Source: Nemertoderma westbladi
Lineage: Eukaryota; Animalia; Xenacoelomorpha
Direction of reading: 5' to 3'
DNA: 49,300 nt
Assembly: GCA_032718475.1 (NCBI GenBank)
Contig: JAUCBJ010000482.1
Coordinates: forward strand, 1-49,300
The translations under genes were made by a program, and so were the position numbers. The notes under the pieces were generated by a model. The model had not been told where the DNA came from. It was given only the letters and a program-made list of their open reading frames with translations, and ran no database searches. Of the stretch, positions 14,279-39,244 are shown piece after piece. Within the stretch, counting starts at the first letter, position 1. Each line of letters opens with the position of its first letter.

Positions 14279-14566
14279 GAATTCCTACGAATTACCCAAA
14301 AAAACACAAAATTACCCAAAAATACACAAAAAAAATAAAAAAAAAACACCAAAAATTTACCCAAAAAAACACAATATTACCCAAAAAACTTACCCAAAGA
14401 GACAAAAATAATTTATATCCTATAAAAAGGTATAACAGTATAGAATTATATTCCCTAAATGCCGTGAATTTTCAAAATTTTATTTTTATTCGAATTAACT
14501 TTGTAAAAGATTACATTGAGTCCTCATTTGTATTTGTTATATCTATTGTACGCCTATTAGTCAAGT

Positions 14567-14653
14567 GGTTCAGTAGCTCAGTCGGTAGAGCGTTGGAAAT
14601 TATATGTGTAGTAGGTATTGAGTTCGAATCCTAGTAAGTGCGAATTATTTTTT
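14567..14653 (+). other. tRNA-like Pol III unit inside the LTR (second copy at 29464-29550)
   Basis: A box/D-arm TAGCTCAGTCGGTAGAGC from 14574, B box GAGTTCGAATCC at 14620-14631, T6 at 14648-14653. Acceptor and anticodon stems do not pair, so this is not a functional tRNA. Confidence 0.7.
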
Positions 14654-14719
14654 GTGCAGAATTTCAACTCATTTAAATTGACCGCTACAAATTAAGTTGC
14701 ATTTGTCTGTACCTAGATT

Positions 14720-14870
14720 AACCAATGAGACTGCAGTTATTAGATTGTAACCAATGTCGTGCAAATTATATATTAGCTGGACCAATAGTTATCTTTAAAA
14801 ACCTGTTAGAACCTATAGAACAATCGAGAATTTTCTCGATTGATTGCAGCACAAATTTGGTATATAAAGG
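14720..14870 (+). promoter_or_regulatory. Putative LTR Pol II promoter: 3 CCAAT boxes, HSE-like palindrome, TATA box
   Basis: ACCAAT at ~14721, ~14750 and ~14781; AATCGAGAATTTTCTCGATT at 14822-14841; TATATAAAG at 14861. Confidence 0.55.
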
Positions 14871-16338
14871 TGCGATTTGTTCATTAGTTATCTTATCTTA
14901 TATATCTGAGATTTAATTATTCTGAGTTATCTGATATTTGTTTATTCTGTCATTAGTTTTCAGATTACATTTTGTATTATTATCTGCAATAAATTCAGAA
15001 ATACCGCTACCTGCTTTTCTTTTCACCATGATTCACTACGGTGAACACTCTTAGGAACAGGATGGCCGGCTAGAGATCGGGCCGCAGCAATGAACGGGAA
15101 CATCGAGGGAATGTAGACAGGAGACAACCCGCAATACCACCTTAGTTATTCGCCCATCGCCTGAAAGGTTAGACAGCGTTCGACGCCTTGCTACCTAAGC
15201 GTAAGACCAAAGATCAAAGGTAGAAGTAGTGACACGCTGTGAGCCCAAAATTACATCTTAGGGACTGTACTGTCTTAATTCAGGAAAAACCACAGTAGAC
15301 CTTCACATTCCTACGGGGGAGAGCGCAGGCAGATACTAGTACGCAGATAGGACGTAGGCACACCGGTACGAAGCATACACATTGGTAGGGTGCAGCAAAC
15401 TGTACGCCTAACTCTTGCTAAGTGCAGGTGCGTTTGCGACTATTTGCAGTACAACGGTGTCCATTGCATTAGAACTTGTAGGCTAGGAGGGTTGCTGTGT
15501 TTCACCTGAATTAGGATTGTACCGTTCAGGCGGTAGGGCAGTTTACAACTAGGCGCAAATAAATTGAGGCTATTAGGGATATACTAACATCTACCGTGTC
15601 CCCGCCAACGTCCTGATAGGAAGTTACCCAGCCTACCTAGGTGACTAAAATTCTAGATAAGAGCCAGGATAGCTATTAGTAACTGTACGCCTACTGTAGT
15701 AAACTAACACATTTCTTCTTAGTATTAGGGGCCTGGTAAATTAAAATTGCCGAATTCTGGGCGTAGCATTAACCTTATGCCTGAATTTGAGTCCTGGAAA
15801 TACGCAAGAGGGGAAGGAACCTTATCATTCGTGAGTATTGGACCTACAAGTTATAAAATTAGAATATTCGTAAAATGCACACCGTACCCAGTAATTATAT
15901 ATGTGAAGGAGCAAAACTGCTTTGACTGTTCAGAATTAACACACGCGCGTTAGAAATTATTTACACCTCAAAATATATAAAATTAACTTTTGTCCGTACT
16001 GTGCTTTGCCCGCTAGTTAGACATCTCCAAATCTCTGCCTCTGTACCTAGCTAGCGTCTCTTTCGCCCAACCATATAAATCACACCGCGGCAAAGTATAC
16101 GAGCCTCTTAGTCCGTCAGTGAGTCAGCCTGATTTTAGGATTCGCTGCGCGGGATTTTGTTTTATCGAAGTTTGTCTGCTCGTAGACTGTTTTCTGCCTC
16201 ACCGGTTATAAGAGATCGATACTGCAATATATTCGCTTACTTAGAGTTTACTGTTTTGGTGAGAAGGTCGGATTTATGATTTGATTCACAAACTTTACAG
16301 TAGGATATTGCAGGTATTGTTACTGTCTCTTCGCATCA

Positions 16339-16349
16339 GTAGGAATGTG
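16339..16349 (+). promoter_or_regulatory. Non-canonical primer-binding site complementary to LTR positions 15304-15314
   Basis: GTAGGAATGTG directly abuts the LTR end and is the exact reverse complement of CACATTCCTAC (15304-15314); no TGG-type tRNA PBS is present. Confidence 0.65.
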
Positions 16350-17150
16350 TTTTACTGAACTACGGTTCGGTTGGACTAAAGTTATTTGAAAATTTTGTAT
16401 TTTGAGGTAAAAGTTTATATTTGATTGGCTAAGTGCTAATTTTTTGACATAAAATTTGATTTGTACCGCGTGTAAAATATTTTTTGGAATTGAATACCGG
16501 TGTTTAAAAAGGGTTTAAATACCATATTGTACCGGTACAAAATTTTTCGTAAAGGTAAAACCTAACTCTTTTGTTTTTCAGGATTCAGAACTCATTTCTA
16601 GACTGTAACGGGAGCAAGACCGTGTTTAGCAAGTTTGGGAGATAGATAACTCAACAACTTTGGTTGGGAAAATCGCGCTTCGTCCGCAACGCTGAAAACG
16701 GAAAGGTTCACGTCCGGTTTGTATCTGGGAATCTGTTTTTCTGGAGAATTATTGGAGTGGGTGAGTTCGAAAAGTTGCATAAATAAGTTAGGCATTACCG
16801 TATTAGTTAAAAATTATTGTGGGTTCCACTGTCTCAAGTATTTATGCATTCCGTATGATTTCTTTGTTCATTGCTGAATTAGTCCGTATTATTGTATTTA
16901 ATTTACCTTTTGATAACGCATATCGTTATCCGATTTATTTGTTATAAAATTGGCCGCTAGGCTAATTTTATTATATACTTATACCGTGACATTTATTTGC
17001 TGTAAAATTGGCCGTTTAGGCTAATTTTATCCATCTGCTATAAAATCGGCCGGTAGGCTAATTTTATATGACTGTAATTAGTACCGTTTAGATAAAATAC
17101 GGTAAGTTTGATACTTTGACACTCACTTTACTTGACTTACAACTACCGAA

Positions 17151-19679
17151 ATGAGTGACAAACAAGACTATACGAAGAATACACCTACCGACTATGACTC
17201 ATGTGACGCGGATAAGTCAGCAGCGGAAGAACAACAGGGGAAGACTCGCGAGCCTACCGAACCTACACCGTGTGCGTCACCAGTACATCCAACGGGAGTA
17301 CCGGATGCCGTAGTACGAGGCGACGGCAGGACCGAGGACTTTCTAACTGTTCCGCAACCTAGATACAGGGAAACGGACATGGTAAGTTCAGCAGGAAGCC
17401 AGGAGAGTGTGGTTAGAAGCGTCGGCGGTTACATGGCGCATATTACCAGGAGTATTGGAGAAGGCCAACGCATATTAGACGAGTTGACCGCTCCGATGTC
17501 TCGATTCGAGTTCTACACCCTCCAGGTTAGAGTACAAAGTAGAGTACACAAGTCCGTAGATAACCTAATTGGTCTACAAGATCTAGCTAGACAGAGACAG
17601 GACATGGATACTCAGCTTAGAATCCTCGAGAAACTAATGATCACTAGAGAGAAACTGATTCAGTTTAAGTCGACGATTAGGCAGGTACAACAGGAACAAG
17701 CGGACCAGTTGTTAGGTGAGTCAGTTTCGGACGAATTATTGCAACCCGAGGAAGAACAGGAACTGTATAGGCTAGATGGACAATTGAAACACCTGATGGA
17801 TCACTTACGTATGTGCGGCGAAGACGTCGGCGATTTGGAAACCGTGCCGGAATATACGAGGGAAATTTCACCCGTACGAATCGAATCGGCAACGGGAATA
17901 TTGGATCAATCGTTGGTAAGTATTCGTAGCGAAATTGGCGAGGGAAGTATGGTCACGTCAGAAGTTGCTCGACAACAGCAAGAATTCTACCGACAACGAC
18001 GAGAAATGGAGGAACAAGCTCAACTTCTAGTGATGCAGGCAGCAGTAGAGGAAGAGAAGCTACGCGTTGCGAATGTAGCGAGAATCTCTCATCTACAGGA
18101 ACAAGCTGAATTAGAAGCAGCTGAAATAGAAAGGTTAGAGGTAGACATTGCCCGACAAGCGGCAGCGGCAGCAGCCGAGTTAGAGCGACAAACGGCAGCA
18201 GCCGAGTTAGAGCGACAAACGGCAGCAGCCGAGTTAGAGCGACAAACGGCAGCAGCCGAGTTAGAGCGACAAACGGCAGCGGCAGAGTTAGAGCGAGAGA
18301 GGTTAGTTTCGGAAGCACGGGCCGAAATGAAAACACGGCAAATAAAAGCTCAATCCGCTATACGACAAGCTGAGTTTGAGGCGCAACGACAACAAACGGA
18401 ACAACGAGAGAAGACAGCTAAACTTCATTTCGAACTCGAGAAGAAGGCGAGAGAATTAGCGAACGCCGAGGAAGATCTGGATCAAAAGGCCCGCGATCGA
18501 TCAATGAGATCTCGAGACGGACATGACTTGGACCAGATAGAGGTAAGACATCGCCAAATTCAGGAACGGAAGAAGGAAGGAAGCGTAGGAGCACCCGGAC
18601 GGGAACGACAATTAGTAAAAGATTTGTGTCAACGATTCCCACAAGTAACTCCTATGTTTGCACCAATTATGACTAAGGAACCTGTTTCGATTGCTGGTAG
18701 TAGTAATATTTCTCCTATCCATGGCGCGACGGAACACAGGTTTGTTATTCCGGACAAGTTTACATCGCCAAGAGCAACGTCGTCGCCTATTCCGAAAGTC
18801 AAGGTAAGTAACCCGCCGATTACAGATCGTAGTAGTTTGTTGACTGGACCTGCACCACTGACGACTAAACAGGTGAGTCCACCATCGACACCTAAACCCG
18901 TTACACACTACGCTTACCCAATGACGTTTCGACCTACAAGGCCAGTCGATTCAGCTGTTACTCGACCACCGAACCAATTTACATCGCAATCTACGACTTC
19001 GAGGAATACTTGTGAGCCTACCGAACAACGGAGAACAGTGGATACGCGACCGGTTCAGTTTACATCGCAATCTACGACTTCGAGGAAGACTTGTGAGCCT
19101 ACCGAACAACGGAGAACAGTGGATACGCGACCGGTTCAGTTTACATCGCAATCTACGACTTCGAGGAAGACTTGTGAGCCTACCGAACAACGGAGAACAG
19201 TGGATACGCGACCGGTTCAGTTTACATCGCAATCTACGACTTCGAGGAAGACTTGTGAGCCTACCGAACAACAGAGATCAGTGGACGATGTTCCGAAACG
19301 AAACGTCAGAATTCGTACGACACAACGGACGCGAGCACGTCGACCACCATATCCAGATGATAGTAGTACTTCGAGCGAATCGGATTACCCGAAACGCGAG
19401 GTATTTAGAACAGGGGCGGCCGATGAATATAAACGCGAGCGTTCAGACAACTCCTTTGTAGACAATCCTCCACAGAATACACCAACACAGAAGGCGTTAC
19501 AACCAACGGACGCAATCAGTACACAACAGTTCGCCGACATCCTGCGACCAGTTGTTAACAAGTTGGCTCAGATCGAGGAACGCTTGGAGGAAGTTCACAC
19601 CGACAGTTCGAGAAATTCCGAATTCGAACACAATAGAAATCCAAAGGTTCCGCAAAGACAAATACCATCGACCAGCTAA
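17151..19679 (+). CDS. Gag-position ORF (coiled-coil and low-complexity N-terminal part), 842 aa
   Basis: First long ORF after the 5' LTR. E/Q/A/R-rich coiled coil, AAAELERQT repeats (~18160-18297), 81-bp repeats (~18978-19287); no CCHC knuckles. Confidence 0.75.
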   Translation: MSDKQDYTKNTPTDYDSCDADKSAAEEQQGKTREPTEPTPCASPVHPTGVPDAVVRGDGRTEDFLTVPQPRYRETDMVSSAGSQESVVRSVGGYMAHITRSIGEGQRILDELTAPMSRFEFYTLQVRVQSRVHKSVDNLIGLQDLARQRQDMDTQLRILEKLMITREKLIQFKSTIRQVQQEQADQLLGESVSDELLQPEEEQELYRLDGQLKHLMDHLRMCGEDVGDLETVPEYTREISPVRIESATGILDQSLVSIRSEIGEGSMVTSEVARQQQEFYRQRREMEEQAQLLVMQAAVEEEKLRVANVARISHLQEQAELEAAEIERLEVDIARQAAAAAAELERQTAAAELERQTAAAELERQTAAAELERQTAAAELERERLVSEARAEMKTRQIKAQSAIRQAEFEAQRQQTEQREKTAKLHFELEKKARELANAEEDLDQKARDRSMRSRDGHDLDQIEVRHRQIQERKKEGSVGAPGRERQLVKDLCQRFPQVTPMFAPIMTKEPVSIAGSSNISPIHGATEHRFVIPDKFTSPRATSSPIPKVKVSNPPITDRSSLLTGPAPLTTKQVSPPSTPKPVTHYAYPMTFRPTRPVDSAVTRPPNQFTSQSTTSRNTCEPTEQRRTVDTRPVQFTSQSTTSRKTCEPTEQRRTVDTRPVQFTSQSTTSRKTCEPTEQRRTVDTRPVQFTSQSTTSRKTCEPTEQQRSVDDVPKRNVRIRTTQRTRARRPPYPDDSSTSSESDYPKREVFRTGAADEYKRERSDNSFVDNPPQNTPTQKALQPTDAISTQQFADILRPVVNKLAQIEERLEEVHTDSSRNSEFEHNRNPKVPQRQIPSTS

Positions 19680-19687
19680 TCCACCAG

Positions 19688-22600
19688 GTGAGTTTAGAAC
19701 TTGGGGAGAAGACGAGTCAGCTAGAGATTCCATCGACGACAGATGATAACGCCGGAAGGCTTGCGAGTCTACCTACCCCAATAACCTCAACAATACCTGT
19801 CGATATCGATGATGACGCGTTGAGAAATCATCAAGTGGAACAAGCTGCATTGGACAAAGAATTAACGGAGAAGACTATCAGGTGGTTAGAACAAGATACA
19901 GCTGAACCTGGTAGCTACGAACCATGTATGTCGGAACAAGAGAAACAATCTTTGAGGATCATGGAAGATACTATCCGCCAGACGGAAGACGGACATTATG
20001 AGGTAGGGATGTTATGGCGTAGCCAAAGTCCTAAACTCATAAATAACTATCCACTAGCTTTAAGACGTCTACACTCAATACGGCAACATCTATTAAAGGA
20101 CGAGAAAGCCCATCTGCAGTACAACACTCAGATGGAGACGTATTTGACCAAGGGATACGCTATCCGAATGACTAACCCAGAGATAGTGACTAACCAGACA
20201 TACTACTTGCCACATCACTTTGTGAGACACCCCGACAAACCAGACAAAGTACGTGTAGTCAATGACTGTGCTGCTCTGTTTGAGGGAATGTCCCTCAATA
20301 GCGAGTTGATGGATGGACCAAACATGAATAATTATCTTATGGGGGTGATTATGCGCTTCCGTCAGCGTCAAGTAGCTTTTACTTGCGACGTTGAAGCTAT
20401 GTTTCACCAAGTGAGAGCGTTAGAGCGAGACAGAGACAGTTTGAGGTTCCTCTGGTACCCGGAAGGAGACTTAAGTCTACCACCGGTGACTTACCAAATG
20501 CAAGTTCGCGTTTTCGGTGCCAGGGACAGCCCAAACTGTACAATGTACGCCCTAAAGCAAGCCGCTAGGGATCAGAAACACCTGTATGACCCAGAGATAA
20601 TTAAGATTGTGGAACGTGACTTTTACGTCGACGACGGTTTACAGAGTTGCGACACAGTAGAACGTGCTACTACAGTAGCACATCAATTACGGGACTGCTT
20701 AGCGGGCGGAGGTTTTAACCTCACCAAATTCGCCTCAAACAGTGCCGAATTAGTAGACTCATTCGGAACGACTGAGCGTGGAGGTGGTGACATAGACCTA
20801 GAGTTCGAACCACTACCGACGACCAAGGTGTTGGGGCTCTTTTGGGACCCAAACACGGACAACTTTCGAGTGAAGGTGAGACTGGACAGTCAAGAAAACA
20901 CACTGACAAAGAGATCATGCTTGTCAAAATTGAGCCGATTGTTCGATCCATTAGGATTCATCAGTCCAATAATACTGCAAGCCCGCATTTATATGCGCAG
21001 TATTTGGAAGGATGGACTGACATGGGACGAGCCGATCTCATCAGACCAAGTGGACTTATGGAAGACCTGGGAGGCAGAATTATCTTCGCTAGAGGATTAT
21101 TCCATACCCAGAGTCTACTTTCCATTACAAACAACATTTCCTGACAACTTGGAATTACATTGTTTTTCGGACGCCAGTGACAACGGTTTTGGTGTGGCAG
21201 CGTACTTGCGCAGACAAGTAGACTCAGAAGAATTCGATGTTTCGCTCATTACTTCTAAGGCAAAAACAATGCCTACTAAGTATATGACGACACCACGAGC
21301 TGAGCTACAAGCCGCAACCCTGTCCACCACCATCGTGAACCTTATACAGACAGAACTACAGTCAAGTTTACAGATATTTTATTGGACTGACGCGACATTG
21401 GTTTTATTTTACATAAACAACGACACACTTGAATTCAAGACATTCGTAGCTAACCGTCGCGCAGAAATTCTAGACCGTTCAATAAAGGAAGATTGGCGAC
21501 ATTGTCCCGGACCACAAAACCCAGCCGATATTGCGTCGCGAGGAATGATGCCTGAGGAATTCTGTAAACCGGAGAACAAAGAATTTTGGCAACACGGACC
21601 ACAATTCTTACAAAGATCAACACTAAATTGGCCACCACTATATGACAACAAGTCTAACACTATCCCTAAGGACGCCGAAATCAAAAAACCAAAGAAAGGG
21701 AAAGCAAAGAAAAAGACGGCGGCTAAACTCAAGAAGAAACCGAAGGCGAAATGGAAAGATATAACTTCAAAGGTCAAGAACGGAAGACTTGCGAGCCTTT
21801 CTACACCAGACATATCGCCAGACGGTCAACCAGACACGTTACTAGACAGCCAACCAGACATTTTGCCAGACATATCACAAAATGTTCTACCAGACACTAG
21901 TAACATATTGACAAACAGGAAAGCCGCAGTTTCCCTATTGGAGCGGCCTTCTATTGACAAACAGCCAGACACGTTACCAGACGTATCGCCAGACACGTTA
22001 CTAGACGGTCAACCAGACGTTTTGCCAGACACGTCACTAGATATTTCGCCGGATGTTCCGCGAAACATTTTACCAGACATGTCACAAAATGTTCTACCAG
22101 ATACTAGTAACATATTGACAAACAGTAAAGCCGCAGTTTCCCTATTGGAGCGGCCTTGTATTGACAAACTACCAAATTTGACACACTTGAGCAACCACAA
22201 GCACGGTGAAACCTCATGTATTACAGATGTGGGTAGTACCTACGCTAATGTAAATACAGGTGTTACTCTGCGCTCAAGAGACATACCAAACTTGCAACCT
22301 ATGGTGAGACCTGGGATTAATGTCGGCAGAAAAATAAGTTTACCGAAACCCACTGACCCCATAGAGTTCAAACCACCATTAACGATCGACTTACAAAGTA
22401 CTGACAACCAGGGTAAGAAGACGAAGAAGGACAAATTACTTGTAGACCCGGACGGATCAACAGTCGACAAGGGAATACTTACCGGCGGACCCGTGGGCCC
22501 TTCTAGTAAATCAAAACCTTCCAAATTCTTTGACTTACCTGATGACGTCACAAATACTCACGTCGACCGTATTGTAAACCTAACAGATTCTTGGACAAAC

Positions 22601-24070
22601 GCTTGCCGAAAATTAGCATGGATTGTACGTTTTGTACAATACGTTAAAGGCAAACGAGACTTTACACGTCGACTTACATTGGCTGAGATTGACAGGTGTG
22701 AAATTAAATTAATTCGCCATTACCAACTGCGATATTTCGCACGCGAATTCACATCTATAAATCAAGGTCAACCAATCAAGTCGTCACCAATATTGAGTTG
22801 GAGTCCGATAATTTATAATGGCTTAATTTGTCATAAATCTCGGCTTCAAAACATTGACTTTAACACAAACTTTAGATACCCAATAATAATACCGCAGCAT
22901 CACGAACTACAACGTGCAATGATACTGGACGCACATTTACATCTGAAACACGCTGGAAGACACCACTGTCTTTCCTACTTACGTACAAGATTTGTATTAA
23001 TTAGACCCAGTAAAGCATTAAGTTCAGTGACACGTACGTGTATTATTTGTAAAAAGGTACATTCTAGAATAGGTACCCAAGAAATGAGTGAACTTCCACA
23101 AGCACGACTTCAAGCATTCAGACCACCTTTTACAGAGACTGGAATTGATTGCTTTGGTCCCATACATACGAAACGTGGACGTATACTAGTAAAACGCTGG
23201 GGACTGATTTTCACATGTATGTCCAGTAGGGCAGTTCATATTGAACGTGTGATGGATCTTTCCACCAACGCGTTTATACTAGCATTGCGGCGATTTATCG
23301 CTAGACGCGGACTAGTGAAATGCTTGTACTCAGACCAAGGGACAAACTTTGTTGGTGCTCGAAATGAGATTGCTAGAGCCTTTAAGAAATTAGATCATGA
23401 TCAAATCTCGAACGAACTACAACCTCACAAGATTGTTTGGAAGTTTAATCCTCCAGATAGTCCATGGAGAGGCGGAGTCTGGGAGAGATTGATTAGATCT
23501 ATCAAAACGGCAATGGCAAAAGTCATTCCAGTAAACCACATATTGACAGACGACCAACTGACAACATTGTTTGTTGAAATCGAGGCAATACTAAATACTA
23601 GACCAATAGTATTAGTACCCGATGACAAACAATCCCAATTTGCTTTGACACCGGCACACCTGCTTATGCAGGCACCGACAACATTGACGCCTATTTCTAT
23701 TCCAATAGAAGGCGATAGCTACGGTAGAAAAGCGTGGAAAATCACGCAACTACTAGCTAACAAATTCTGGGAAATATGGCAAAACCATTATTTGCCCTCT
23801 ATTTCTGCCAGAACAACATGGTACAACAACACCCGCGCATTAAAGCCGGGAGATCACGTGCTGTTAGCGGAAGTGAATCTAAAAAGACGCTTCTGGATAA
23901 CAGGTGTTATTTTAGACACACATCCATCTATGGACGGAGTGACAAGAACTGTGACGGTACGGACAATTGACGGTCGTACAGTTGACAGACCGACTCAACG
24001 TCTCATACTTCTTGAAGAGACTCGTAACGAGTCTGGAGACTACAAATCTCCAACTAATATTAGTAAATAA
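19688..24070 (+). CDS. pol: BEL/Pao Pol: reverse transcriptase, RNase H, integrase (no protease seen)
   Basis: RT: YYLPHHFV, KVRVVNDCA, DVEAMFHQV, FYVDD (TAC at 20624). RNase H: HCFSDAS, PRAELQAA, WTDAT, NPADIASRG. IN: H..H..CIIC, GIDCFGP, YSDQGTNF, GGVWERLI. The GTG start is probably not a true initiation site. Confidence 0.95.
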   Translation: MSLELGEKTSQLEIPSTTDDNAGRLASLPTPITSTIPVDIDDDALRNHQVEQAALDKELTEKTIRWLEQDTAEPGSYEPCMSEQEKQSLRIMEDTIRQTEDGHYEVGMLWRSQSPKLINNYPLALRRLHSIRQHLLKDEKAHLQYNTQMETYLTKGYAIRMTNPEIVTNQTYYLPHHFVRHPDKPDKVRVVNDCAALFEGMSLNSELMDGPNMNNYLMGVIMRFRQRQVAFTCDVEAMFHQVRALERDRDSLRFLWYPEGDLSLPPVTYQMQVRVFGARDSPNCTMYALKQAARDQKHLYDPEIIKIVERDFYVDDGLQSCDTVERATTVAHQLRDCLAGGGFNLTKFASNSAELVDSFGTTERGGGDIDLEFEPLPTTKVLGLFWDPNTDNFRVKVRLDSQENTLTKRSCLSKLSRLFDPLGFISPIILQARIYMRSIWKDGLTWDEPISSDQVDLWKTWEAELSSLEDYSIPRVYFPLQTTFPDNLELHCFSDASDNGFGVAAYLRRQVDSEEFDVSLITSKAKTMPTKYMTTPRAELQAATLSTTIVNLIQTELQSSLQIFYWTDATLVLFYINNDTLEFKTFVANRRAEILDRSIKEDWRHCPGPQNPADIASRGMMPEEFCKPENKEFWQHGPQFLQRSTLNWPPLYDNKSNTIPKDAEIKKPKKGKAKKKTAAKLKKKPKAKWKDITSKVKNGRLASLSTPDISPDGQPDTLLDSQPDILPDISQNVLPDTSNILTNRKAAVSLLERPSIDKQPDTLPDVSPDTLLDGQPDVLPDTSLDISPDVPRNILPDMSQNVLPDTSNILTNSKAAVSLLERPCIDKLPNLTHLSNHKHGETSCITDVGSTYANVNTGVTLRSRDIPNLQPMVRPGINVGRKISLPKPTDPIEFKPPLTIDLQSTDNQGKKTKKDKLLVDPDGSTVDKGILTGGPVGPSSKSKPSKFFDLPDDVTNTHVDRIVNLTDSWTNACRKLAWIVRFVQYVKGKRDFTRRLTLAEIDRCEIKLIRHYQLRYFAREFTSINQGQPIKSSPILSWSPIIYNGLICHKSRLQNIDFNTNFRYPIIIPQHHELQRAMILDAHLHLKHAGRHHCLSYLRTRFVLIRPSKALSSVTRTCIICKKVHSRIGTQEMSELPQARLQAFRPPFTETGIDCFGPIHTKRGRILVKRWGLIFTCMSSRAVHIERVMDLSTNAFILALRRFIARRGLVKCLYSDQGTNFVGARNEIARAFKKLDHDQISNELQPHKIVWKFNPPDSPWRGGVWERLIRSIKTAMAKVIPVNHILTDDQLTTLFVEIEAILNTRPIVLVPDDKQSQFALTPAHLLMQAPTTLTPISIPIEGDSYGRKAWKITQLLANKFWEIWQNHYLPSISARTTWYNNTRALKPGDHVLLAEVNLKRRFWITGVILDTHPSMDGVTRTVTVRTIDGRTVDRPTQRLILLEETRNESGDYKSPTNISK

Positions 24071-24734
24071 TTAGGAGTTTACAAATAGATTTCCACGTAC
24101 CTGTACACTGTAGTAAGGACAGCGGTAGAATTCCATTGTCTTTTATATGTGAACATTGAGGGTAGTACCCTTATGTGTCACATAGGAGCGGGATTTGTAG
24201 GTATAAGAAATGGAATTCTACTTGGAACTCACAATATTGAGACATTTTCGAAAATTTAGACAATCCATTTGGATTTGAAAAATTTTAAAATTTTCTCCAG
24301 TGAATAGATTTCAGGGTACAGTCGGGTGGAACTTAAAATTAGAGAAACAAGAGAGGAAGACTTGCGAGCCTTTCTTAAAATTTTAATTAAATTTTACACG
24401 GTCTTGTTTCAATAAGTTACGTCAATAAATAGACTCCCCTATATTTATTACTAATTCTTGATTGCTTATTTTCTGATAATAGTTTGGGATCAAAAAGTGA
24501 GTATTTTAGACTCACAGCCAGTTTAGCCCAAATTCGTTTTTATTTCGGCAAAAAAAAATTTTAGATAAGAAGCAGCGTGTCATTAAAGAAACCCTAGATC
24601 TTAGGCTATGGGTAGGAGGTTAGAGCGTTGTCGAGCCCAAAGGGCAGACGAAACTCTCACGTCTCCTCACAACTAACTACAAACTCTGTTGTATTCCCTC
24701 TAGTAGTAATGATTATGTAACCACACCTCTAATT

Positions 24735-27700
24735 ATGGAGAAAGGGATACAAGGAGAGCCGAGATGGGGATATGATATCCAAGAGGAGGCAGCAGCGCCA
24801 TTCGAAAGATTTGGAGCCAAGGACTACACTATATTTGGTATAAAAGAATTATCAGAAAGTACAGCGAAACTCGCGAGAACTAAATATGACTCAAATGTAT
24901 TAAAGAGAAGACAAAATGCATTAAACGAAAGAATCGAAAGTTTGCGCAAAACCTTCAATGAACTTTACCCGTACGACGCTTTGTGTGATACGGGAGACAT
25001 TAGCGAAGACCCCGATACTGAAATTAGTCGTTTGTATCATACCATGCAATACCTAAAGGCGCACGAACCTATGCCCGCGGTACGCGATGAATTCGATGGA
25101 ATGCATCTTTACAGACGAACTCGAGGGGATGATAGAGAAACCAAGGAAGCATTTTCAGTTTATAAACTTTATTATCAATGCGGTTCTTGTATGCGCGAAC
25201 AACGAAATGCGATTCCGATGCGTTTGAATAAGGAAAATCCCGAACCGATATTGGCGAGGTGTTCGAACCATCAACAACTACGCTACCAGGAAGGAGGGTA
25301 TCCTTTATCGAATCCATATCATTCATTTGCTATGACCGGACCAAAGGCGGGAGAAACTGTCGTTTACCCACCCAAGGTTGTTGAACCCGATGTATTTGAA
25401 CTTACGCTGGACGAGGCAAATCAGTCAACCCGCGAAAAGAAAGAAGCTCTTAGCCTATACAGAGCCTACAAGGCTTTCGAGAAAGGTGAGATGGAAGAAT
25501 GGGGCGGAAGACTCGCGAGCCTACCTTACCATTGGACGTCACACGATCAAACTCCAGCTAAGGAGATGACACCGGAAGTTTTCGAGAGCATAAACTTTGC
25601 TCAAAACGTTATTCAGAGACTACAGATTGCATCCCCGGAGAGGACAAGAGAAATGCAACCATATAGTACTTCAACTACGAAACCATTGAGTACGACACTC
25701 AATTTTCCTATTAGTATACCAGTCCGACAGGATACGACGTACGAAATACCCATCGTGGATCATCCAGAAATCATTTCAAACTTGGAGTTTCTTCCTGCAG
25801 TTGTTTTCAGCGATATGAGTAAGATATATGATTTACGTAGACATATTACTCAAAAGGTTGTGTACAACGTTCCACCTCATATTCAAGACTTCAAGGAACT
25901 GGATAGAGCTGGTGCCGATATAGCTCCGAGTAATTTGAAAGGATATTTAACCAAGACGATTCGTTTATGGATTGGAACCGGAACCTTCGAGTCGGATACA
26001 GATATTGCCGCGGATTGGCGAGGTAAGGTTATTCGTTTCGAAGATGATAAGGACATAGAGAAGATTTGGCAACCTTCGGAAGAATTGTTGGATGAATGGA
26101 ATAGAACGTTTAGATCGTTTCAGGAAAATGGTTACATGTTTTACGATAACGAGGGCGGCAGTCATCAACAGAGTTTGACTTCTAAGACTATACAAATTAG
26201 AGCGGCGGACGGAGTCCTGCACGTTTTCAGTAGACAGAGGAGCGACAAACGAATGCCGATACCTCCAGCAAATACAAAGCGACACCATCTTATCACTGAC
26301 ATAGTAAAGAAGATGGACCAAGCTTGTAATATCGACGCTAGAATGCTACCGAAGATGGTAAGAAACATGATTTTAGATAAAACTGTTGTAAAGATTGGAT
26401 CAGGAGTAAGGGAGGACTTAATTAGCGACTTCGCCGGCATGACGGACAGCGATGACCGACTACCGACACCTTACGTCGACACTCGACCTCTTATTTTGTG
26501 GTCTATAGAACAGGGATATTTTCGTGAGTATAATACTCAGAAGACTGGAACTGGATACATTTCCTACCTGTTATTCAATTGGGATTATAAGGAAAGTAAG
26601 AGAACCAAGTATATTGAGACTTATGGAGAAGGTGATACTCCAGATATGAGTGAGTTTGAATCACAGCTCAAATGGAGAGGATGCGTGTATTGGGCTATTA
26701 CGTCACCTCCAAGAGCGGTCTTACAATATTATTTAGCAATAGAGTCGTCAGTAAATGTTTGCCTAATCGCCGACATTGTGTCTCGGACTCTCAAAAGACA
26801 TCCACTTTGTCTCGGAGAAGATCATACGTTCTACATGGAAGGGAGGATTCATACCGACGTGTTTAGACGATTCCTCGAACCCTTCTACAACTCCGACGCT
26901 CAGTGTAATGCCTTTACTCGAGCAGGATTTAGTATATTTCGAGACGTGTATCTTCGCTGTGCGGGATCTCTTATCGAAAGACCATCTATGTTTACATTGT
27001 TACCCTATGAAGGAGAACGTATCGTGGAGATTACGGATGAATCACGGCAGACGCGCGCGCCTATCGGTCACCTTGGTGATGATTTCGAAGTAACTACTAC
27101 GATCACTGACGATCCTTTAGAGGAACTTCTTGAGATAGAAAGGAACCTCCCGAAGAAATCTCAGACGGAGATTCGACAACTTGAAGCAACAGATGCTATA
27201 GTTTGTATACAACCTTCAGAAACCTACCAACCCATAGATCCAGATGATTACGATTATAGTGTGGGAGGAAGCGCTCGACCGATTGGAGATCTTATATACG
27301 AACGAGTGTGGTACCCTGCCAATACGATGTGTGGTAAATGTGGCGTCGCTGGACATCATATGACAAAGTGCAGTGGAAAGCACATTACTACGACTCAGCT
27401 AATCTGTGGATGGTGTGGAGATCAAGGGTCTCATACCTTTTATACTTGCTGGAGATTTATGGCTCAATGTACTTATTGCAATATAAAAGGACATCGAGCA
27501 TCTGAATGCCAACTAAGAGATATACCCTATGAACACGAATCTGTAAAACTCGTGAGAAAATTATTCGATGAGTGGGAAGATTTAGCCGACGAACATGTAT
27601 CGGCACAAAGAAGACGATTTCCGATGAGGGCGCATCTTGGATTTTGGGCGGTAAATCCCCAAACGATGATGTCGGAAGGATACATCTCCGCTATGCCCCA

Positions 27701-28460
27701 ATATGACGAACTTATCGAGGTAGTCGATATTTTGCCCCACGACAGTGGATTCCGAGTAGTGCGCGAGTATCTACTACAGATTCACCCGGATAACAAAAAC
27801 ACGTGGAATTTTCAGAAAGTCGTTAATCGCATCACGTATGGTGAATTCGATCGTTTCCGAACTGAAAAACGGAATAAAGGAGCTTGGTTAACCGTCGCAT
27901 GGGCGTACCGAGCCGCGTTTTACCATAAACGTATACGAGCGAGCGTATTCGAGGAAGAGGAGGTCCTAGAGGCGACAAATATACCAGCCACTCCGGTTGC
28001 GCCGTCTGCACGTCACCCTCGGGAGGACGGACAGGGTAGGATCATACGGGTCCAGAAAGTTAGCCAACAGTTAAAGAAGTCTATTAATATAGAAGAACGC
28101 AAGGGAGCTGAGCCGACCATTCGAATTACTCGGGATACGGTATCGCTTCCTAGAGAACCAACAGGAGGATCGGGACATACACCAGCTGATCAAAAGGGGG
28201 CGCAAGCTACTCTTGGGTCTGCGTCGTGCGCTTCTCGCGCGTTCCCAGACGTTCTACCAACTGTAGTGACAACTGATCGGTCACGAGGAATCGGTCGAGG
28301 TTTTGGGATGCCAAATAGACGAATTTGCGAGGAAATGGTCGCACCGTCTCTCAACGTCCAAACGAAACCAGTGACTCGCCCCACAAGTCCCATATCGCGA
28401 GCAAAGTCACCTGTGCGCAGTTTTCGAGGACGCGGCAGGGCTCGATCAACTAAGCGATAA
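24735..28460 (+). CDS. Extra ORF3 (1241 aa): DEDDy-like 3'-5' exonuclease domain + three CCHC knuckles + basic tail
   Basis: MFYDNEG (ExoI DxE, ~26136), TIQIRAADG, LPKMVRNMILDKTVVKIGSGVREDL (ExoII), YVDTR, QYYLAIES (ExoIII-like, ~26727). Knuckles CGKCGVAGHHMTKC, CGWCGDQGSHTFYTC and CTYCNIKGHRASEC (27330-27509). No signal peptide or transmembrane segment seen, so not env-like. Confidence 0.8.
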   Translation: MEKGIQGEPRWGYDIQEEAAAPFERFGAKDYTIFGIKELSESTAKLARTKYDSNVLKRRQNALNERIESLRKTFNELYPYDALCDTGDISEDPDTEISRLYHTMQYLKAHEPMPAVRDEFDGMHLYRRTRGDDRETKEAFSVYKLYYQCGSCMREQRNAIPMRLNKENPEPILARCSNHQQLRYQEGGYPLSNPYHSFAMTGPKAGETVVYPPKVVEPDVFELTLDEANQSTREKKEALSLYRAYKAFEKGEMEEWGGRLASLPYHWTSHDQTPAKEMTPEVFESINFAQNVIQRLQIASPERTREMQPYSTSTTKPLSTTLNFPISIPVRQDTTYEIPIVDHPEIISNLEFLPAVVFSDMSKIYDLRRHITQKVVYNVPPHIQDFKELDRAGADIAPSNLKGYLTKTIRLWIGTGTFESDTDIAADWRGKVIRFEDDKDIEKIWQPSEELLDEWNRTFRSFQENGYMFYDNEGGSHQQSLTSKTIQIRAADGVLHVFSRQRSDKRMPIPPANTKRHHLITDIVKKMDQACNIDARMLPKMVRNMILDKTVVKIGSGVREDLISDFAGMTDSDDRLPTPYVDTRPLILWSIEQGYFREYNTQKTGTGYISYLLFNWDYKESKRTKYIETYGEGDTPDMSEFESQLKWRGCVYWAITSPPRAVLQYYLAIESSVNVCLIADIVSRTLKRHPLCLGEDHTFYMEGRIHTDVFRRFLEPFYNSDAQCNAFTRAGFSIFRDVYLRCAGSLIERPSMFTLLPYEGERIVEITDESRQTRAPIGHLGDDFEVTTTITDDPLEELLEIERNLPKKSQTEIRQLEATDAIVCIQPSETYQPIDPDDYDYSVGGSARPIGDLIYERVWYPANTMCGKCGVAGHHMTKCSGKHITTTQLICGWCGDQGSHTFYTCWRFMAQCTYCNIKGHRASECQLRDIPYEHESVKLVRKLFDEWEDLADEHVSAQRRRFPMRAHLGFWAVNPQTMMSEGYISAMPQYDELIEVVDILPHDSGFRVVREYLLQIHPDNKNTWNFQKVVNRITYGEFDRFRTEKRNKGAWLTVAWAYRAAFYHKRIRASVFEEEEVLEATNIPATPVAPSARHPREDGQGRIIRVQKVSQQLKKSINIEERKGAEPTIRITRDTVSLPREPTGGSGHTPADQKGAQATLGSASCASRAFPDVLPTVVTTDRSRGIGRGFGMPNRRICEEMVAPSLNVQTKPVTRPTSPISRAKSPVRSFRGRGRARSTKR

Positions 28461-29336
28461 AAGGGAGGGCAAGGGTGGATGGAAGACTCGTGAGCCTTTC
28501 TTGTGAATTTGTGATTTATTTGAATTATATGTTTTATATTTAATTAGTAAGTTTTGTATTCTGGAAAACTCATATTTAGTAAGATTTATATTTAGTAAGA
28601 ATTTATGTTTGTAAGAATTTATATTTTATATTTGTGATTATTCCGAACTTATGCAATTTATATTGTTCCGAATACTATGCAATTTATATCTTGTAAGCAG
28701 TATTTGTATTTACAGTGAAATAGAAAGTAAGAGTAGATGGAAGACTCGTGGGCCTTTCTTATAGTTTCATTTGTAAAGTGTTATATTTTGTATTTAGAAA
28801 GTTTTATAGTTAGAAAGTTTTGTGCTTAGAAAGACTCATATTTGTAATTATTCCGAACTTATGCAATCTACATTTAGGCACGAAAGTATTTGTAATTATT
28901 TGAATTTATGCAATATTTCAGATGCAATAGTAGATGGAAGACTCGCGAGCCTTTCTTATGATTTTCATTTATTTGTATTTGTAATTGTTTGAATTTATGC
29001 AATATTGAGATGCAATAGTAGATGGAAGACTCGCGAGCCTTTCTTATAGTTTCATTTATTTGTATTTGTAATTGTTTGAATTTATGCAATATTGAGATGC
29101 AATAGATTTATATTGGTGAATTTAATTTAGATTTATATTGTACTTACTTAGTAAAGCCTTAACTACGTAAAGTTTGAATTTGTAATTATTTGTATCGAAT
29201 CATTATGTAGAAAGGAAGTATTGTTTGAAATTTAATTGTAAATATGTAAGTACGCCCTAAGTATTCTATAGTTTGATTGATTATTGGTGAAAACCGTATA
29301 TTTTATGCACGATAATATCCTGTTTTCATGGAGCGG
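28461..29336 (+). repeat. AT-rich 3' UTR with ~88-bp imperfect tandem repeats carrying the GGAAGACTCGCGAGCCTTTC hairpin; ends in the PPT
   Basis: Hairpin copies at 28481, 28739, 28936 and 29024; GGAGCGG at 29330-29336. Confidence 0.7.
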
Positions 29337-31235
29337 TATAGAATTATATTCCCTAAATGCCGTGATTTTCAAAATTTTATTTTTATTCGAATTAACTTTG
29401 TAAAAGATTACATTGAGTCCTCATTTGTATTTGTTATATCTATTGTACGCCTATTAGTCAAGTGGTTCAGTAGCTCAGTCGGTAGAGCGTTGGAAATTAT
29501 ATGTGTAGTAGGTATTGAGTTCGAATCCTAGTAAGTGCGAATTATTTTTTGTGCAGAATTTCAACTCATTTAAATTGACCGCTACAAATTAAGTTGCATT
29601 TGTCTGTACCTAGATTAACCAATGAGACTGCAGTTATTAGATTGTAACCAATGTCGTGCAAATTATATATTAGCTGGACCAATAGTTATCTTTAAAAACC
29701 TGTTAGAACCTATAGAACAATCGAGAATTTTCTCGATTGATTGCAGCACAAATTTGGTATATAAAGGTGCGATTTGTTCATTAGTTATCTTATCTTATAT
29801 ATCTGAGATTTAATTATTCTGAGTTATCTGATATTTGTTTATTCTGTCATTAGTTTTCAGATTACATTTTGTATTATTATCTGCAATAAATTCAGAAATA
29901 CCGCTACCTGCTTTTCTTTTCACCATGATTCACTACGGTGAACACTCTTAGGAACAGGATGGCCGGCTAGAGATCGGGCCGCAGCAATGAACGGGAACAT
30001 CGAGGGAATGTAGACAGGAGACAACCCGCAATACCACCTTAGTTATTCGCCCATCGCCTGAAAGGTTAGACAGCATTCGACGCCTTGCTACCTAAGCGTA
30101 AGACCAAAGATCAAAGGTAGAAGTAGTGACACGCTGTGAGCCCAAAATTACATCTTAGGGACTGTACTGTCTTAATTCAGGAAAAACCACAGTAGACCTT
30201 CACATTCCTACGGGGGAGAGCGCAGGCAGATACTAGTACGCAGATAGGACGTAGGCACACCGGTACGAAGCATACACATTGGTAGGGTGCAGCAAACTGT
30301 ACGCCTAACTCTTGCTAAGTGCAGGTGCGTTTGCGACTATTTGCAGTACAACGGTGTCCATTGCATTAGAACTTGTAGGGTAGGAGGGTTGCTGTGTTTC
30401 ACCTGAATTAGGATTGTACCGTTCAGGCGGTAGGGCAGTTTACAACTAGGCGCAAATAAATTGAGGCTATTAGGGATATACTAACATCTACCGTGTCCCC
30501 GCCAACGTCCTGATAGGAAGTTACCCAGCCTACCTAGGTGACTAAAATTCTAGATAAGAGCCAGGATAGCTATTAGTAACTGTACGCCTACTGTAGTAAA
30601 CTAACACATTTCTTCTTAGTATTAGGGGCCTGGTAAATTAAAATTGCCGAATTCTGGGCGTAGCATTAACCTTATGCCTGAATTTGAGTCCTGGAAATAC
30701 GCAAGAGGGGAAGGAACCTTATCATTCGTGAGTATTGGACCTACAAGTTACAAAATTAGAATATTCGTAAAATGCACACCGTACCCAGTAATTATATATG
30801 TGAAGGAGCAAAACTGCTTTGACTGTTCAGAATTAACACACGCGCGTTAGAAATTATTTACACCTCAAAATATATAAAATTAACTTTTGTCCGTACTGTG
30901 CTTTGCCCGCTAGTTAGACATCTCCAAATCTCTGCCTCTGTACCTAGCTAGCGTCTCTTTCGCCCAACCATATAAATCACACCGCGGCAAAGTATACGAG
31001 CCTCTTAGTCCGTCAGTGAGTCAGCCTGATTTTAGGATTCGCTGCGCGGGATTTTGTTTTATCGAAGTTTGTCTGCTCGTAGACTGTTTTCTGCCTCACC
31101 GGTTATAAGAGATCGATACTGCAATATATTCGCTTACTTAGAGTTTACTGTTTTGGTGAGAAGGTCGGATTTATGATTTGATTCACAAACTTTACAGTAG
31201 GATATTGCAGGTATTGTTACTGTCACTTCGCATCA
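29337..31235 (+). repeat. 3' LTR (1899 bp)
   Basis: Direct repeat of 14439-16338, followed by the AACAG TSD. Confidence 0.95.
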
Positions 31236-34200
31236 AACAGTATAAACTGATAAGTTAGGCCTATCAGCCTATACTGTTAGGCCTAGGACTATAGGCGTAG
31301 GGTTCCTATGTGTTTCGGTAGTGCGATTTAGTATTTTGGTTAGGTTAGATATTGTGTATTGAATAGGCCATCATACTGCCATACATAGCAATACCGGTAC
31401 ATCAAATCAATACGATTTCCAAATCAACCAAGTCAGTAAGCACTGGCTGACCGATACCGTACCGTAGGCTGGTAGGTCAGTATGTAGCCTATAGGCCTAG
31501 GCCAACTGCCAACCATCAGGCATCAGCCGGTTGGAAAAATAAGACTGTAACCTGTGTTCTTTGGTTATTGTTTATTGTTTTGGTTAGAAAAGCCTGCTAC
31601 TGTCAGACTGTAACCTGCTCCTTTCCATTAATTAAGAAATCTGATTTTGCATGCTGTCTGGCAGTCTGGGTGGGTAGGCTTACCGGTAAACCGGTGGCAG
31701 TAGGTCATTAAAGGAATCTTCAAATTAACAAAATGCAATATTTTGAAAAAAGTGAAAACTGAAAAGTGAAACTCTTCTTAAAATTAACCTAAATCTTATA
31801 GTAGATACATTGTTTATGAAAAACATTTTTTTTGTCTTTTTGGGTAGTTTTTTTGGGTAATATTGTGTTTTTTGTGTTTTTTTCAGTAATTTTTTGTATT
31901 TTTGTGTATTTTTGTGTTTTTTTTTTGGGTAATATTGTGTTTTTTTACGTAATTCTGTAATTCGTAGGCAACCGCAACCAACGGTAGTTAATTATGAGTA
32001 TGACGCTTACTTTTGAATTTTCGCTGAAAAAATATAGCAAACCATAGTTTTCTGCCTCATTTTTGATAAATCTAGGTGTTTCTAGATGTACCGGTATCCG
32101 GCCTTTATAAAACTAGGTGTTTATTCTAGCTGTATGTGTTTCCACTTTCCAGGTGTTTCCAGTCATTTTCCAGGCTGCCAGGGTTTTCAGCTTTTTAGTA
32201 GGGTAAACCGGGGTTGTATGGCCATGTGGGTTGTATGGCCACCCTTGACATAAAGTGCTATAACTTTACTTTATTTTAATGTCTGTCAGTTTTTATTACT
32301 TCTAAATGAAGCTGAATAATTTTCCAATAAAATGACATATAAACCATATCTTCAATTGATTCCATTATTTTACAGTGACATGGCAAAGTTTCCGTTCATG
32401 AAAAAGTGTAACTTTTAGGTTTTGTGAATTTAGAGTAACACACACTAACAGGTGCCTTCTGGAACAAGTTAATGCTTGACCATATTGCAATGATGTTGAA
32501 TAGTATGTTTATTAAATTATAATTAATAGGCCTAAATAATTTAATTTATTCGATTTCGTTAACTTTTAGATGAGTTATTTACCCTCAAAAAATCATGGCC
32601 ATACCACAGTCGGGGAGAAGTTCTATTTTCAACTAGATAAGAGCCAGGATAGCTATTAGTAACTGTACGCCTACTGTAGTAAACTAACACATTTCTTCTT
32701 AGTATTAGGGGCCTGGTAAATTAAAATTGCCGAATTCTGGGCGTAGCATTAACCTTATGCCTGAATTTGAGTCCTGGAAATACGCAAGAGGGGAAGGAAC
32801 CTTATCATTCGTGAGTATTGGACCTACAAGTTACAAAATTAGAATATTCGTAAAATGCACACCGTACCCAGTAATTATATATGTGAAGGAGCAAAACTGC
32901 TTTGACTGTTCAGAATTAACACACGCGCGTTAGAAATTATTTACACCTCAAAATATATAAAATTAACTTTTGTCCGTACTGTGCTTTGCCCGCTAGTTAG
33001 ACATCTCCAAATCTCTGCCTCTGTACCTAGCTAGCGTCTCTTTCGCCCAACCATATAAATCACACCGCGGCAAAGTATACGAGCCTCTTAGTCCGTCAGT
33101 GAGTCAGCCTGATTTTAGGATTCGCTGCGCGGGATTTTGTTTTATCGAAGTTTGTCTGCTCGTAGACTGTTTTCTGCCTCACCGGTTATAAGAGATCGAT
33201 ACTGCAATATATTCGCTTACTTAGAGTTTACTGTTTTGGTGAGAAGGTCGGATTTATGATTTGATTCACAAACTTTACAGTAGGATATTGCAGGTATTGT
33301 TACTGTCTCTTCGCATCAAACAGTATAAACTGATAAGTTAGGCCTATCAGCCTATACTGTTAGGCCTAGGACTATAGGCGTAGGGTTCCTATGTGTTTCG
33401 GTAGTGCGATTTAGTATTTTGGTTAGGTTAGATATTGTGTATTGAATAGGCCATCATACTGCCATACATAGCAATACCGGTACATCAAATCAATACGATT
33501 TCCAAATCAACCAAGTCAGTAAGCACTGGCTGACCGATACCGTACCGTAGGCTGGTAGGTCAGTATGTAGCCTACAGGCCTAGGCCAACTGCCAACCATC
33601 AGGCATCAGCCGGTTGGAAAAATAAGACTGTAACCTGTGTTCTTTGGTTATTGTTTATTGTTTTGGTTAGAAAAGCCTGCTACTGTCAGACTGTAACCTG
33701 CTCCTTTCCATTAATTAAGAAATCTGATTTTGCATGCTGTCTGGCAGTCTGGGTGGGTAGGCTTACCGGTAAACCGGTGGCAGTAGGTCATTAAAGGAAT
33801 CTTCAAATTAACAAAATGCAATATTTTGAAAAAAGTGAAAACTGAAAAGTGAAACTCTTCTTAAAATTAACCTAAATCTTATAGTAGATACATTGTTTAT
33901 GAAAAACATTTTTTTTGTCTTTTTGGGTAGTTTTTTTTGGGTAATATTGTGTTTTTTGTGTTTTTTTCAGTAATTTTTTGTATTTTTGTGTATTTTTGTG
34001 TTTTTTTTTTGGGTAATATTGTGTTTTTTTACGTAATTCTGTAATTCGTAGGCAACCGCAACCAACGGTAGTTAATTATGAGTATGACGCTTACTTTTGA
34101 ATTTTCGCTGAAAAAATATAGCAAACCATAGTTTTCTGCCTCATTTTTGATAAATCTAGGTGTTTCTAGATGTACCGGTATCCGGCCTTTATAAAACTAG

Positions 34201-34718
34201 GTGTTTATTCTAGCTGTATGTGTTTCCACTTTCCAGGTGTTTCCAGTCATTTTCCAGGCTGCCAGGGTTTTCAGCTTTTTAGTAGGGTAAACCGGGGTTG
34301 TATGGCCATGTGGGTTGTATGGCCACCCTTGACATAAAGTGCTATAACTTTACTTTATTTTAATGTCTGTCAGTTTTTATTACTTCTAAATGAAGCTGAA
34401 TAATTTTCCAATAAAATGACATATAAACCATATCTTCAATTGATTCCATTATTTTACAGTGACATGGCAAAGTTTCCGTTCATGAAAAAGTGTAACTTTT
34501 AGGTTTTGTGAATTTAGAGTAACACACACTAACAGGTGCCTTCTGGAACAAGTTAATGCTTGACCATATTGCAATGATGTTGAATAGTATGTTTATTAAA
34601 TTATAATTAATAGGCCTAAATAATTTAATTTATTCGATTTCGTTAACTTTTAGATGAGTTATTTACCCTCAAAAAATCATGGCCATACCACAGTCGGGGA
34701 GAAGTTCTATTTTCAACT
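30550..34718. repeat. Tandem duplication, ~2083-bp unit (3' third of the 3' LTR + flank)
   Basis: Identical ORFs at 30644 and 32727 (offset 2083); junction at 32633-32634 with CT microhomology; creates a partial third LTR at 32633-33318. Confidence 0.95.
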
Positions 34719-36780: not shown

Positions 36781-36904
36781 TATCATCCATGATCATTGAT
36801 CAGGCATTCCTTGGCTTAATGAGCCTCAAAAGATTATCCCATTCAATCTGTCAATATCATGAATTGGGGTGTTAGCGATGATGGAAAATATATAGACATC
36901 TTAA

Positions 36905-38575: not shown

Positions 38576-39244
38576 GTTCTAGTTTTTAAAATCTATTTAC
38601 GTATGTCAGTATGTACATTGACAAAGTGAAACAAAATAGAGTAAATAAGATAAATTTCATTCAGAAAGACAACTGTGGACTTAAAGTGCTAAGTGCTGTT
38701 ATGTGCTGTTCAATAGAAACAATACGCTACCCATTCTGCCATTGTCCTGCAGTGTACTGTACGTACAGTAGTATAGCAGTATAGCTGTATAGTGCTGATG
38801 GAAAGACAAAATTGGACCTAAAGTCCAAAATTGGATGTGCAAAACTTTAAATGTCGGTTATCTTTGTGGTGCACCGTGAAATTTTCTCGTGCACGGTTAA
38901 AACTCTTATTTTGTAGTAAAGAACATGTAGGTTAAATTTCAGATCCCGTCTGAAAAAATTGTAGGCCGTGGAAAATTCACTGTAATTCATATCAAAATTA
39001 ATTCCGATATTGGAATGGAAGTCCAATTTTGACTTAGCAAGTTCCAAAATTGGATCAAGTCCAAAATCGCCTATATCACCGACTGGTATAGGTCTGTCAG
39101 TCAGTCGGTAAGTCAAAAATTGGACTTGAGTCCAAAATTGGACTTCGACTCCAGTTCAAGTCCAAAATTGGACTTCTGTGAGTCCAATATTGGACTTCAA
39201 ATCAGCCAATTGTTCCAGGCAGCCAGGGCCTTGGGTAATTGGGT

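Follow-up and report, generated by a model that had tools for sequence, protein, structure and literature searches.

An intact third gene for a predicted DEDDy-type exonuclease with zinc knuckles in a BEL/Pao-type retrotransposon of Nemertoderma westbladi

Background

DEDDy exonucleases encoded by a third open reading frame (ORF3) are already known from retrotransposons with long terminal repeats (LTRs). They were published in 2017 for the bdelloid elements Juno1/2 and Vesta2/5, together with Athena/Terminon elements, in a report that itself raised 3'-end processing and a role in silencing for the product (PMC5408684). Here we describe a comparable case in a stretch of 49,300 nucleotides of Nemertoderma westbladi (GCA_032718475.1, contig JAUCBJ010000482.1, positions 1 to 49,300, forward strand; hereafter the window), where an element of BEL/Pao type, assigned from its domains, carries between pol and the 3' LTR an intact ORF3 that is under purifying selection. 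This ORF3 is a third gene, likely spliced in the manner of env, and we put at about 45% the probability that its predicted 3'-5' exonuclease with zinc knuckles weakens small-RNA silencing in trans.

The bdelloid ORF3s resemble that of the window in being DEDDy third genes that follow pol and replace env, in having no transmembrane domain and in the change of one catalytic aspartate to glutamate. However, the bdelloid site is DEED and that of the window ORF3 DEDE, the hosts belong to the Juno and Vesta clades and not to BEL/Pao, and, comparing by description, a Cys-His-Cys motif is noted for them whereas a triple CCHC knuckle is not described (PMC5408684). To this picture the window ORF3 adds a signal of purifying selection and a splice joint. 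With the Belpaoviridae (PMC8742986), the window element shares the LTRs, the reverse transcriptase (RT)-RNase H-integrase order with Pao-specific Pfam families, and a third gene at the env position. This gene, however, has a predicted nuclease fold where that of the Belpaoviridae is env-like; the element measures 16.8 kb with LTRs of 1.9 kb, as compared with 4.2-10 kb and 0.2-1.2 kb; the 18-nt tRNA-Arg/Gly primer site of the family has no tRNA-type counterpart; and the window copy is devoid of Gag knuckles and protease.

Among cellular proteins, EXD2, WRN-exo, Nibbler/Mut-7, EXD1, Egalitarian, RNase D and Rrp6 have in common with ORF3 the predicted fold and the ExoI and ExoII residues, but ORF3 differs by YxxxE at ExoIII, two long insertions, knuckles placed after the domain and no detected HRDC. 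Dada (DEDDy) and KolobokD (DEDDh) likewise represent transposon-borne, DnaQ-like accessory exonucleases; in contrast, these are DNA transposons, the Dada domain lies inside the transposase, and the proposed substrate is DNA ends (PMC3706591, PMC9587614).

The initial annotation of the window had presented this architecture as undescribed in BEL/Pao elements. That part stands within the literature searched, where no exonuclease ORF in BEL/Pao was found, Repbase, subscription journals and supplements being outside that search. The words "exonuclease" and "nuclease" are absent from the main text of PMC3118150, whose supplements contain sequences of elements in which such ORFs might be found, and "exonuclease" is absent from the text of PMC13524379 that was searched. 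The claim does not extend to LTR retrotransposons at large, in view of the 2017 report (PMC5408684), and it is the BEL/Pao host that appears to be new. The initial annotation did not include the env-like splice, the loss of Gag knuckles and protease from the window copy, or the primer site complementary to the LTR.

Results

Layout of ORF3

The reading frame of 1241 amino acids (aa) that had been annotated between pol and the 3' LTR is indeed open without interruption, in a position between the pol stop (24070) and the 3' LTR, and it is intact although the window copy of the element is not. Its parts are as follows.

24735..28460, + strand: ORF3, 1241 aa
26067..26834, + strand: DEDDy-derived exonuclease domain (predicted), aa 445-700, with D471, E473, D561, Y666 and E670
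27330..27509, + strand: three CCHC-type zinc knuckles, aa 866-925
27972..28457, + strand: basic tail, aa 1080-1241, net charge +18, with RGIGRG and RGRG

The motifs FYDNEG, KIGSGVREDL, YVDTR and YYLAIES, on which the annotation had been based, are found at aa 469, 553, 580 and 665. The three knuckles also recognised there follow the patterns CX2CX4HX4C (aa 866), CX2CX5HX4C (aa 891) and CX2CX4HX4C (aa 912), and at least two knuckles appeared in none of 5000 shuffles of ORF3. Envelope hallmarks are missing, as had been claimed: ORF3 has no transmembrane segment (top 19-residue hydropathy, 1.38) and no R-x-K/R-R furin site, and its identification as an env was rejected on these grounds. No significant Pfam match was obtained for aa 1-440 or for the tail. 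A CxxC...CxxH spacing at aa 149-179 (25179-25271) is a possible extra zinc site, and the N-terminal third in which it lies is absent from the homolog P0003.

A distant homolog

An exhaustive search of 1.84 billion proteins returned three sequences. One of them (E 5.7e-5), P0003, is a single unnamed record of 558 aa that aligns to ORF3 aa 536-999 with 24% identity over 485 columns and that has in common with it the exonuclease, the knuckles and a post-knuckle motif. The other two, P0002 and P0004, matched the knuckles only and were dropped as homologs. The motifs VDTES, KAGSDMRQD and YLRGD of P0003 make up a full D-E-D-Y-D set. Since P0003 bears the same exonuclease-knuckle fusion, the knuckles belong to ORF3, and the idea that they represent the displaced Gag nucleocapsid of the element was rejected. 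Word-index searches for homologs yielded no match among 4475 and 2543 candidates and P0003 alone among 7174. No related loci were found in metagenome or viral contigs, and the two matches of a phage tblastn search were at chance level.

The Atlas model of P0003 (mean pLDDT 0.44) matched PF01612 clusters in all ten rows, all of them below the bar at which the tool names a family, with TM values of 0.73 and 0.70 as normalised by single-domain targets of ~210 aa. This match between a model and PF01612 structures is independent of the ORF3 model. The top row was a euglenozoan cluster with PF01612 (100%) and zf-CCHC (61%), a pairing of exonuclease and knuckles that is therefore also present in other eukaryotes.

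The predicted exonuclease fold

As originally proposed, ORF3 aa ~445-700 very probably adopt a DnaQ/DEDDy fold, a conclusion drawn from Atlas features, an hhalign test of the ORF3+P0003 pair, the P0003 structure match described above, and Foldseek searches with an AlphaFold model built on an alignment. In the Atlas feature search with aa 400-760, 24 of 30 matches were to PF01612 clusters (0.92), the top two rows being unnamed clusters. Profiles were built from 70 bacterial PF01612 domains (29 RNase D, 31 stand-alone and 10 Pol I), and the pooled hidden Markov model (HMM) ranked ORF3 and P0003 above each of 300 shuffles. By hhalign, the ORF3+P0003 pair aligned with the 70 domains over 94 columns (P 0.0015) with ExoI and ExoII in register, a score that none of 150 column shuffles reached. 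In a MAFFT alignment of 45 rows (ORF3, P0003 and 43 of the 70 bacterial domains), D471, E473, Q487, K553, D561 and W653 were invariant in all rows; the ORF3 domain is 9-19% identical to the bacterial members and contains two long insertions. For aa 441-740, NCBIfam yielded a single match, to DNA pol III epsilon, which covers ExoI (E 0.036). Sequence searches of the PDB produced no significant match, and after the exonuclease no HRDC was matched at E up to 10, although divergence could mask one.

With the alignment-built model, Foldseek placed EXD2 first (E 1.4e-4) and gave four matches at E <=0.001; viral 3'-5' exonucleases were also matched. VIA-align returned DEDDy proteins tied at Z about 10-13 (top Z 13.0, rmsd 3.5, 165 aligned, on this alignment-biased model), with Nibbler, EXD1 and Egalitarian among the tied neighbours. 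Between WRN/EXD2/Mut-7/EXD1/Egl and RNase D/Rrp6, Z values were tied by VIA-align and EXD2 was top by Foldseek, the bias of the model applying to both.

Several results from the same analyses weigh on the other side. There was no Pfam match to PF01612 for either ORF3 or P0003, and the Atlas share of ORF3 (165/256) was below the 170 typical of same-family matches. The pooled HMM scores for the ORF3/P0003 pair were only 2.7 and 3.8 bits, and the stand-alone and Pol I sub-profiles, weaker than the pooled one, were not significant, with 33 and 16 of 300 shuffles, respectively, scoring as high. Moreover, hhalign in global mode gave no alignment support, and the MAFFT alignment set ExoIII one residue off. 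The single-sequence AlphaFold model of aa 401-760 had a pLDDT of 32.6 and was not used in the fold search; that built on the bacterial DEDDy alignment reached 65, with aa 620-669, next to ExoIII, below 50, and is partly circular because of the alignment on which it was built.

The glutamate in place of the ExoIII aspartate, pointed out in the initial annotation, was corroborated: ORF3 reads Y666xxxE670 and P0003 YxxxD, and a pairwise alignment of the two sets E670 at the aspartate position. Because of this YxxxE, the sequence leads us to class the domain as DEDDy-derived rather than as a canonical PF01612 member. Along with the large insertions within the domain, E670 also favours a different explanation, namely that ORF3 encodes a pseudo-nuclease adaptor akin to EXD1 or Egalitarian, whose domain solely binds RNA, either guiding the transcript towards the germ line or protecting it. 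In EXD1, the DEDD fold is inactive and binds single-stranded RNA (PMC4712191), and both Egl and EXD1 are among the tied structural neighbours. However, D471, E473, D561 and Y666 are kept in ORF3, whereas the acidic set of EXD1 is gone (SDLN, AELE; PMC4712191), and P0003 displays the full catalytic set. In addition, glutamate is still a carboxylate, and bdelloid ORF3s with a D-to-E variant (DEED) were judged possibly active (PMC5408684). On this basis we regard a pure adaptor as quite unlikely and consider that the E670 domain, to judge from its residues, may well retain catalysis.

ORF3 in other copies of the family

According to the annotation, absence of ORF3 from other copies of the family, as after a one-off capture of a host gene, would speak against its proposal. 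Contigs from all four runs covered ORF3. Some of them were ~82-84% identical to the window on ORF3 (X1: 645 letters, 122 differences; X3: 981 letters, 180 differences) and likewise on ORF1 and pol, which suggests a sister family; these contigs are too short to link ORF3 to an element.

Selection across copies, which had been put forward as a check, was tested on the 40 best-supported of 70 variants over 26100-26800, each judged singly. Synonymous changes accounted for 29 of these 40, against an expected fraction of 0.295 (P 2.5e-8; pN/pS about 0.16). None of the 40 altered D471, E473, D561, Y666 or E670, and one falls in the D561 codon but is synonymous. Farther 3' in ORF3, six of the nine listed variants were synonymous. 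ORF3 is under purifying selection, and the synonymous excess, the ~82%-identical contigs and the splice joint between leader and acceptor presented below show it to be a family gene.

These data bear directly on the possibility that ORF3 is a mere passenger that does nothing for the element, being either a host gene that was captured or a fortuitous match to the motifs. P0003 is the single distant homolog found, the word-index searches being otherwise empty, and copies from which the exonuclease is deleted (aa ~47-725 or ~52-762) occur in three of the four runs (X1, X4 and X3), two observations that a passenger would account for. However, the pN/pS ratio, the similar identity of the sister-family contigs on ORF3, ORF1 and pol, the lack of introns in ORF3 and its dedicated acceptor joined to the element leader all speak against a passenger, which we consider highly improbable and largely refuted already. 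The exonuclease-deleted copies are also compatible with ORF3 acting in trans.

A splice joint between leader and ORF3

Retroelement env genes are usually expressed from spliced RNA. A contig of run X4 joins position 16760 to 24704, with GT..AG ends for the sequence removed, at the following sites.

16758..16766, + strand: leader splice donor G/GTGAGT, intron start at 16761
24673..24703, + strand: branch point CTAAC, pyrimidine tract and TAG acceptor of ORF3

The donor is one of eight GGTRAGT sites in the internal region. Of the 947 AGs of that region, three, the acceptor included, are preceded by a branch point and a pyrimidine tract. The acceptor lies 31 bases 5' of the ORF3 ATG, with a three-codon upstream ORF in between. 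It is likely, therefore, that ORF3 is made from a leader-spliced RNA in the manner of env, and ORF3s have been described as typically coming from spliced messages (PMC5408684). A point to be set against this is that the joint was seen in one contig, with 29 letters on its short side. The contig represents either a transcript or a DNA copy reverse-transcribed from spliced RNA, run X4 being guessed to be DNA. At 16562-16581, the leader contains another strong branch point with an acceptor, which implies a further intron with its donor in the LTR.

The primer-binding site

No TGG was found within the first 20 bases past the 5' LTR and, accordingly, this region does not qualify as a tRNA-type primer site. 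What occupies the position is complementary to the LTR itself.

16339..16349, + strand: primer-binding-site position, without a TGG start, complementary to LTR 15304-15314
15304..15314, + strand: LTR 11-mer complementary to the primer-site position, candidate self-primer, with pairing extendable to about 15293

Just 10 of the 12987 internal 11-mers have a complement in the LTR. The primer-site duplex has a predicted energy of -23.5 kcal/mol, with only one of 215 control 20-mers as low, and the pairing of 16339-16357 with 15293-15314 comprises 11 bp plus 7 more across a small loop. The element is thus a candidate for priming from its own LTR instead of from a tRNA. Since base pairing continues in the upstream direction and ends before a G-run, a primer with a precise 3' end would be needed.

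The complementarity provides a concrete substrate for another explanation, in which ORF3 would enter the particle and help replication by trimming the element's own 3' ends, these being either an LTR-cut self-primer, trimmed back to the primer-site duplex, or the cDNA prior to integration. In addition to the rarity of the duplex among controls and the presumed need for a precise end, this explanation is favoured by the resemblance of the ORF3 knuckles to nucleocapsid knuckles (weak matches) and by the DNA-end processing suggested for the DEDD domains of Dada and KolobokD (PMC3706591, PMC9587614). On the other hand, canonical BEL/Pao elements consist of gag, pol and at times env, and nothing more (PMC8742986), and a separately spliced protein would need a way into the particle. 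We consider such a replication helper unlikely; in its bolder version, the ORF3 enzyme may mature the LTR-derived self-primer.

Architecture of the element and its surroundings

The remaining features of the element are these.

14434..14438, + strand: 5' target-site duplication AACAG
14439..16338, + strand: 5' LTR, 1900 bp, TA...CA
17151..19679, + strand: ORF1, in the gag position, 842 aa, no Pfam match, without knuckles, probably truncated (putative internal deletion near 19673)
19637..24070, + strand: pol frame with RT (YVDD), Peptidase_A17, Integrase_H2C2 and DUF5641, without a protease motif
29330..29336, + strand: purine-rich short tract GGAGCGG in the polypurine tract position
29337..31235, + strand: 3' LTR, 1899 bp
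31236..31240, + strand: 3' target-site duplication AACAG

The element measures 16,797 bp and is young. Its LTRs are identical at 1895 of 1899 aligned bases, with one gap, both are bounded by TA...CA, and AACAG is duplicated on each side. In pol, where the YVDD of the RT is at aa 330, Peptidase_A17 (E 1.4e-42), DUF5641 (E 1.7e-20) and Integrase_H2C2 (under the cut-off) mark the element as BEL/Pao; together with the LTRs, the target-site duplication and the RT-RNase H-integrase order, these domains make it BEL/Pao-type by sequence. Neither a CCHC knuckle nor a protease-like D-x-G motif was present in any + frame of 16339-24070, and ORF1 had no Pfam match. One X4 contig shows 157 unmatched letters just before 19673, and the end of ORF1 is out of frame with pol near ~19673. 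A probable explanation is an internal deletion close to the ORF1/pol junction in a copy with near-identical LTRs. As it is missing the Gag capsid/nucleocapsid, with its knuckles, and the protease, the window copy is probably non-autonomous, and we class it as BEL/Pao-derived and probably deleted; it was probably either mobilised in trans or shortened by deletion after its insertion.

In-frame tandem repeats are found in the part of pol that separates RNase H from integrase (21806-22103), and ORF1 has further ones (18139-18327 and 18968-19285). An LTR stretch (14566-14635) and its 3' LTR counterpart look, by eye, like a tRNA or SINE head with A-box- and B-box-like words; ARAGORN and Rfam did not recognise this stretch as tRNA-like. 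Two near-perfect tandem duplications, at 30550-34718 (2083 bp, with 686 bp from the end of the 3' LTR) and at 11978-14237 (1130 bp, non-LTR RT), are either recent events or assembly artefacts. Elsewhere in the window there are a 629-aa C2H2 zinc-finger array in a single exon (8149-10038, - strand; 16 Pfam stretches), non-LTR RT fragments (4534-6637, + strand; 11474-14229, - strand) and two minisatellite arrays (36892-38577 and 46342-47996) with related units of 62 and 52 bp in opposite orientation.

Discussion

We propose that the ORF3 protein would be made from a spliced RNA, separately from pol, and that its exonuclease domain would trim or hold host small RNAs (piRNA/siRNA, precursors or sliced fragments), while the knuckles and the basic RG tail would bind RNA or silencing granules. 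The outcome would be a weaker small-RNA silencing of the element, with an effect in trans. RG motifs are known to recruit Tudor proteins. That the target is a small-RNA pathway is a guess, and we offer it tentatively. The methylated 3' ends of mature piRNAs, which resist enzymes of this kind, tell against it. Moreover, the bdelloid ORF showed no clear tie to copy number (PMC5408684). In its favour, LTR elements draw on the same pool of DEDDy ORFs as Penelope-like elements, despite their different modes of replication (PMC5408684), and this would point to a step that both have in common. The likely separate expression of ORF3, the copies without the exonuclease and the presence of Nibbler, EXD1 and Egalitarian among the tied structural neighbours are indirect arguments in the same direction. 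A more specific formulation, in which a BEL/Pao element swapped env for a spliced and active small-RNA nuclease directed against piRNAs, whose EXD2/Nibbler-like domain, bearing a DEDE site and accompanied by three knuckles, would be a separate acquisition, appears doubtful to us.

The present case extends the pattern of DEDD nucleases to another LTR superfamily, and adds to it a purifying-selection signal from the comparison of copies, as well as a splice joint that would allow expression in the manner of env. The question of what DEDD nucleases do for retrotransposons dates from the bdelloid report, in which neither activity nor benefit was shown (PMC5408684). That unrelated elements have acquired these nucleases repeatedly suggests that they face the same pressure, for which small-RNA silencing is the most plausible candidate, and with an intact ORF3 from a young family the function becomes accessible to a simple nuclease assay.

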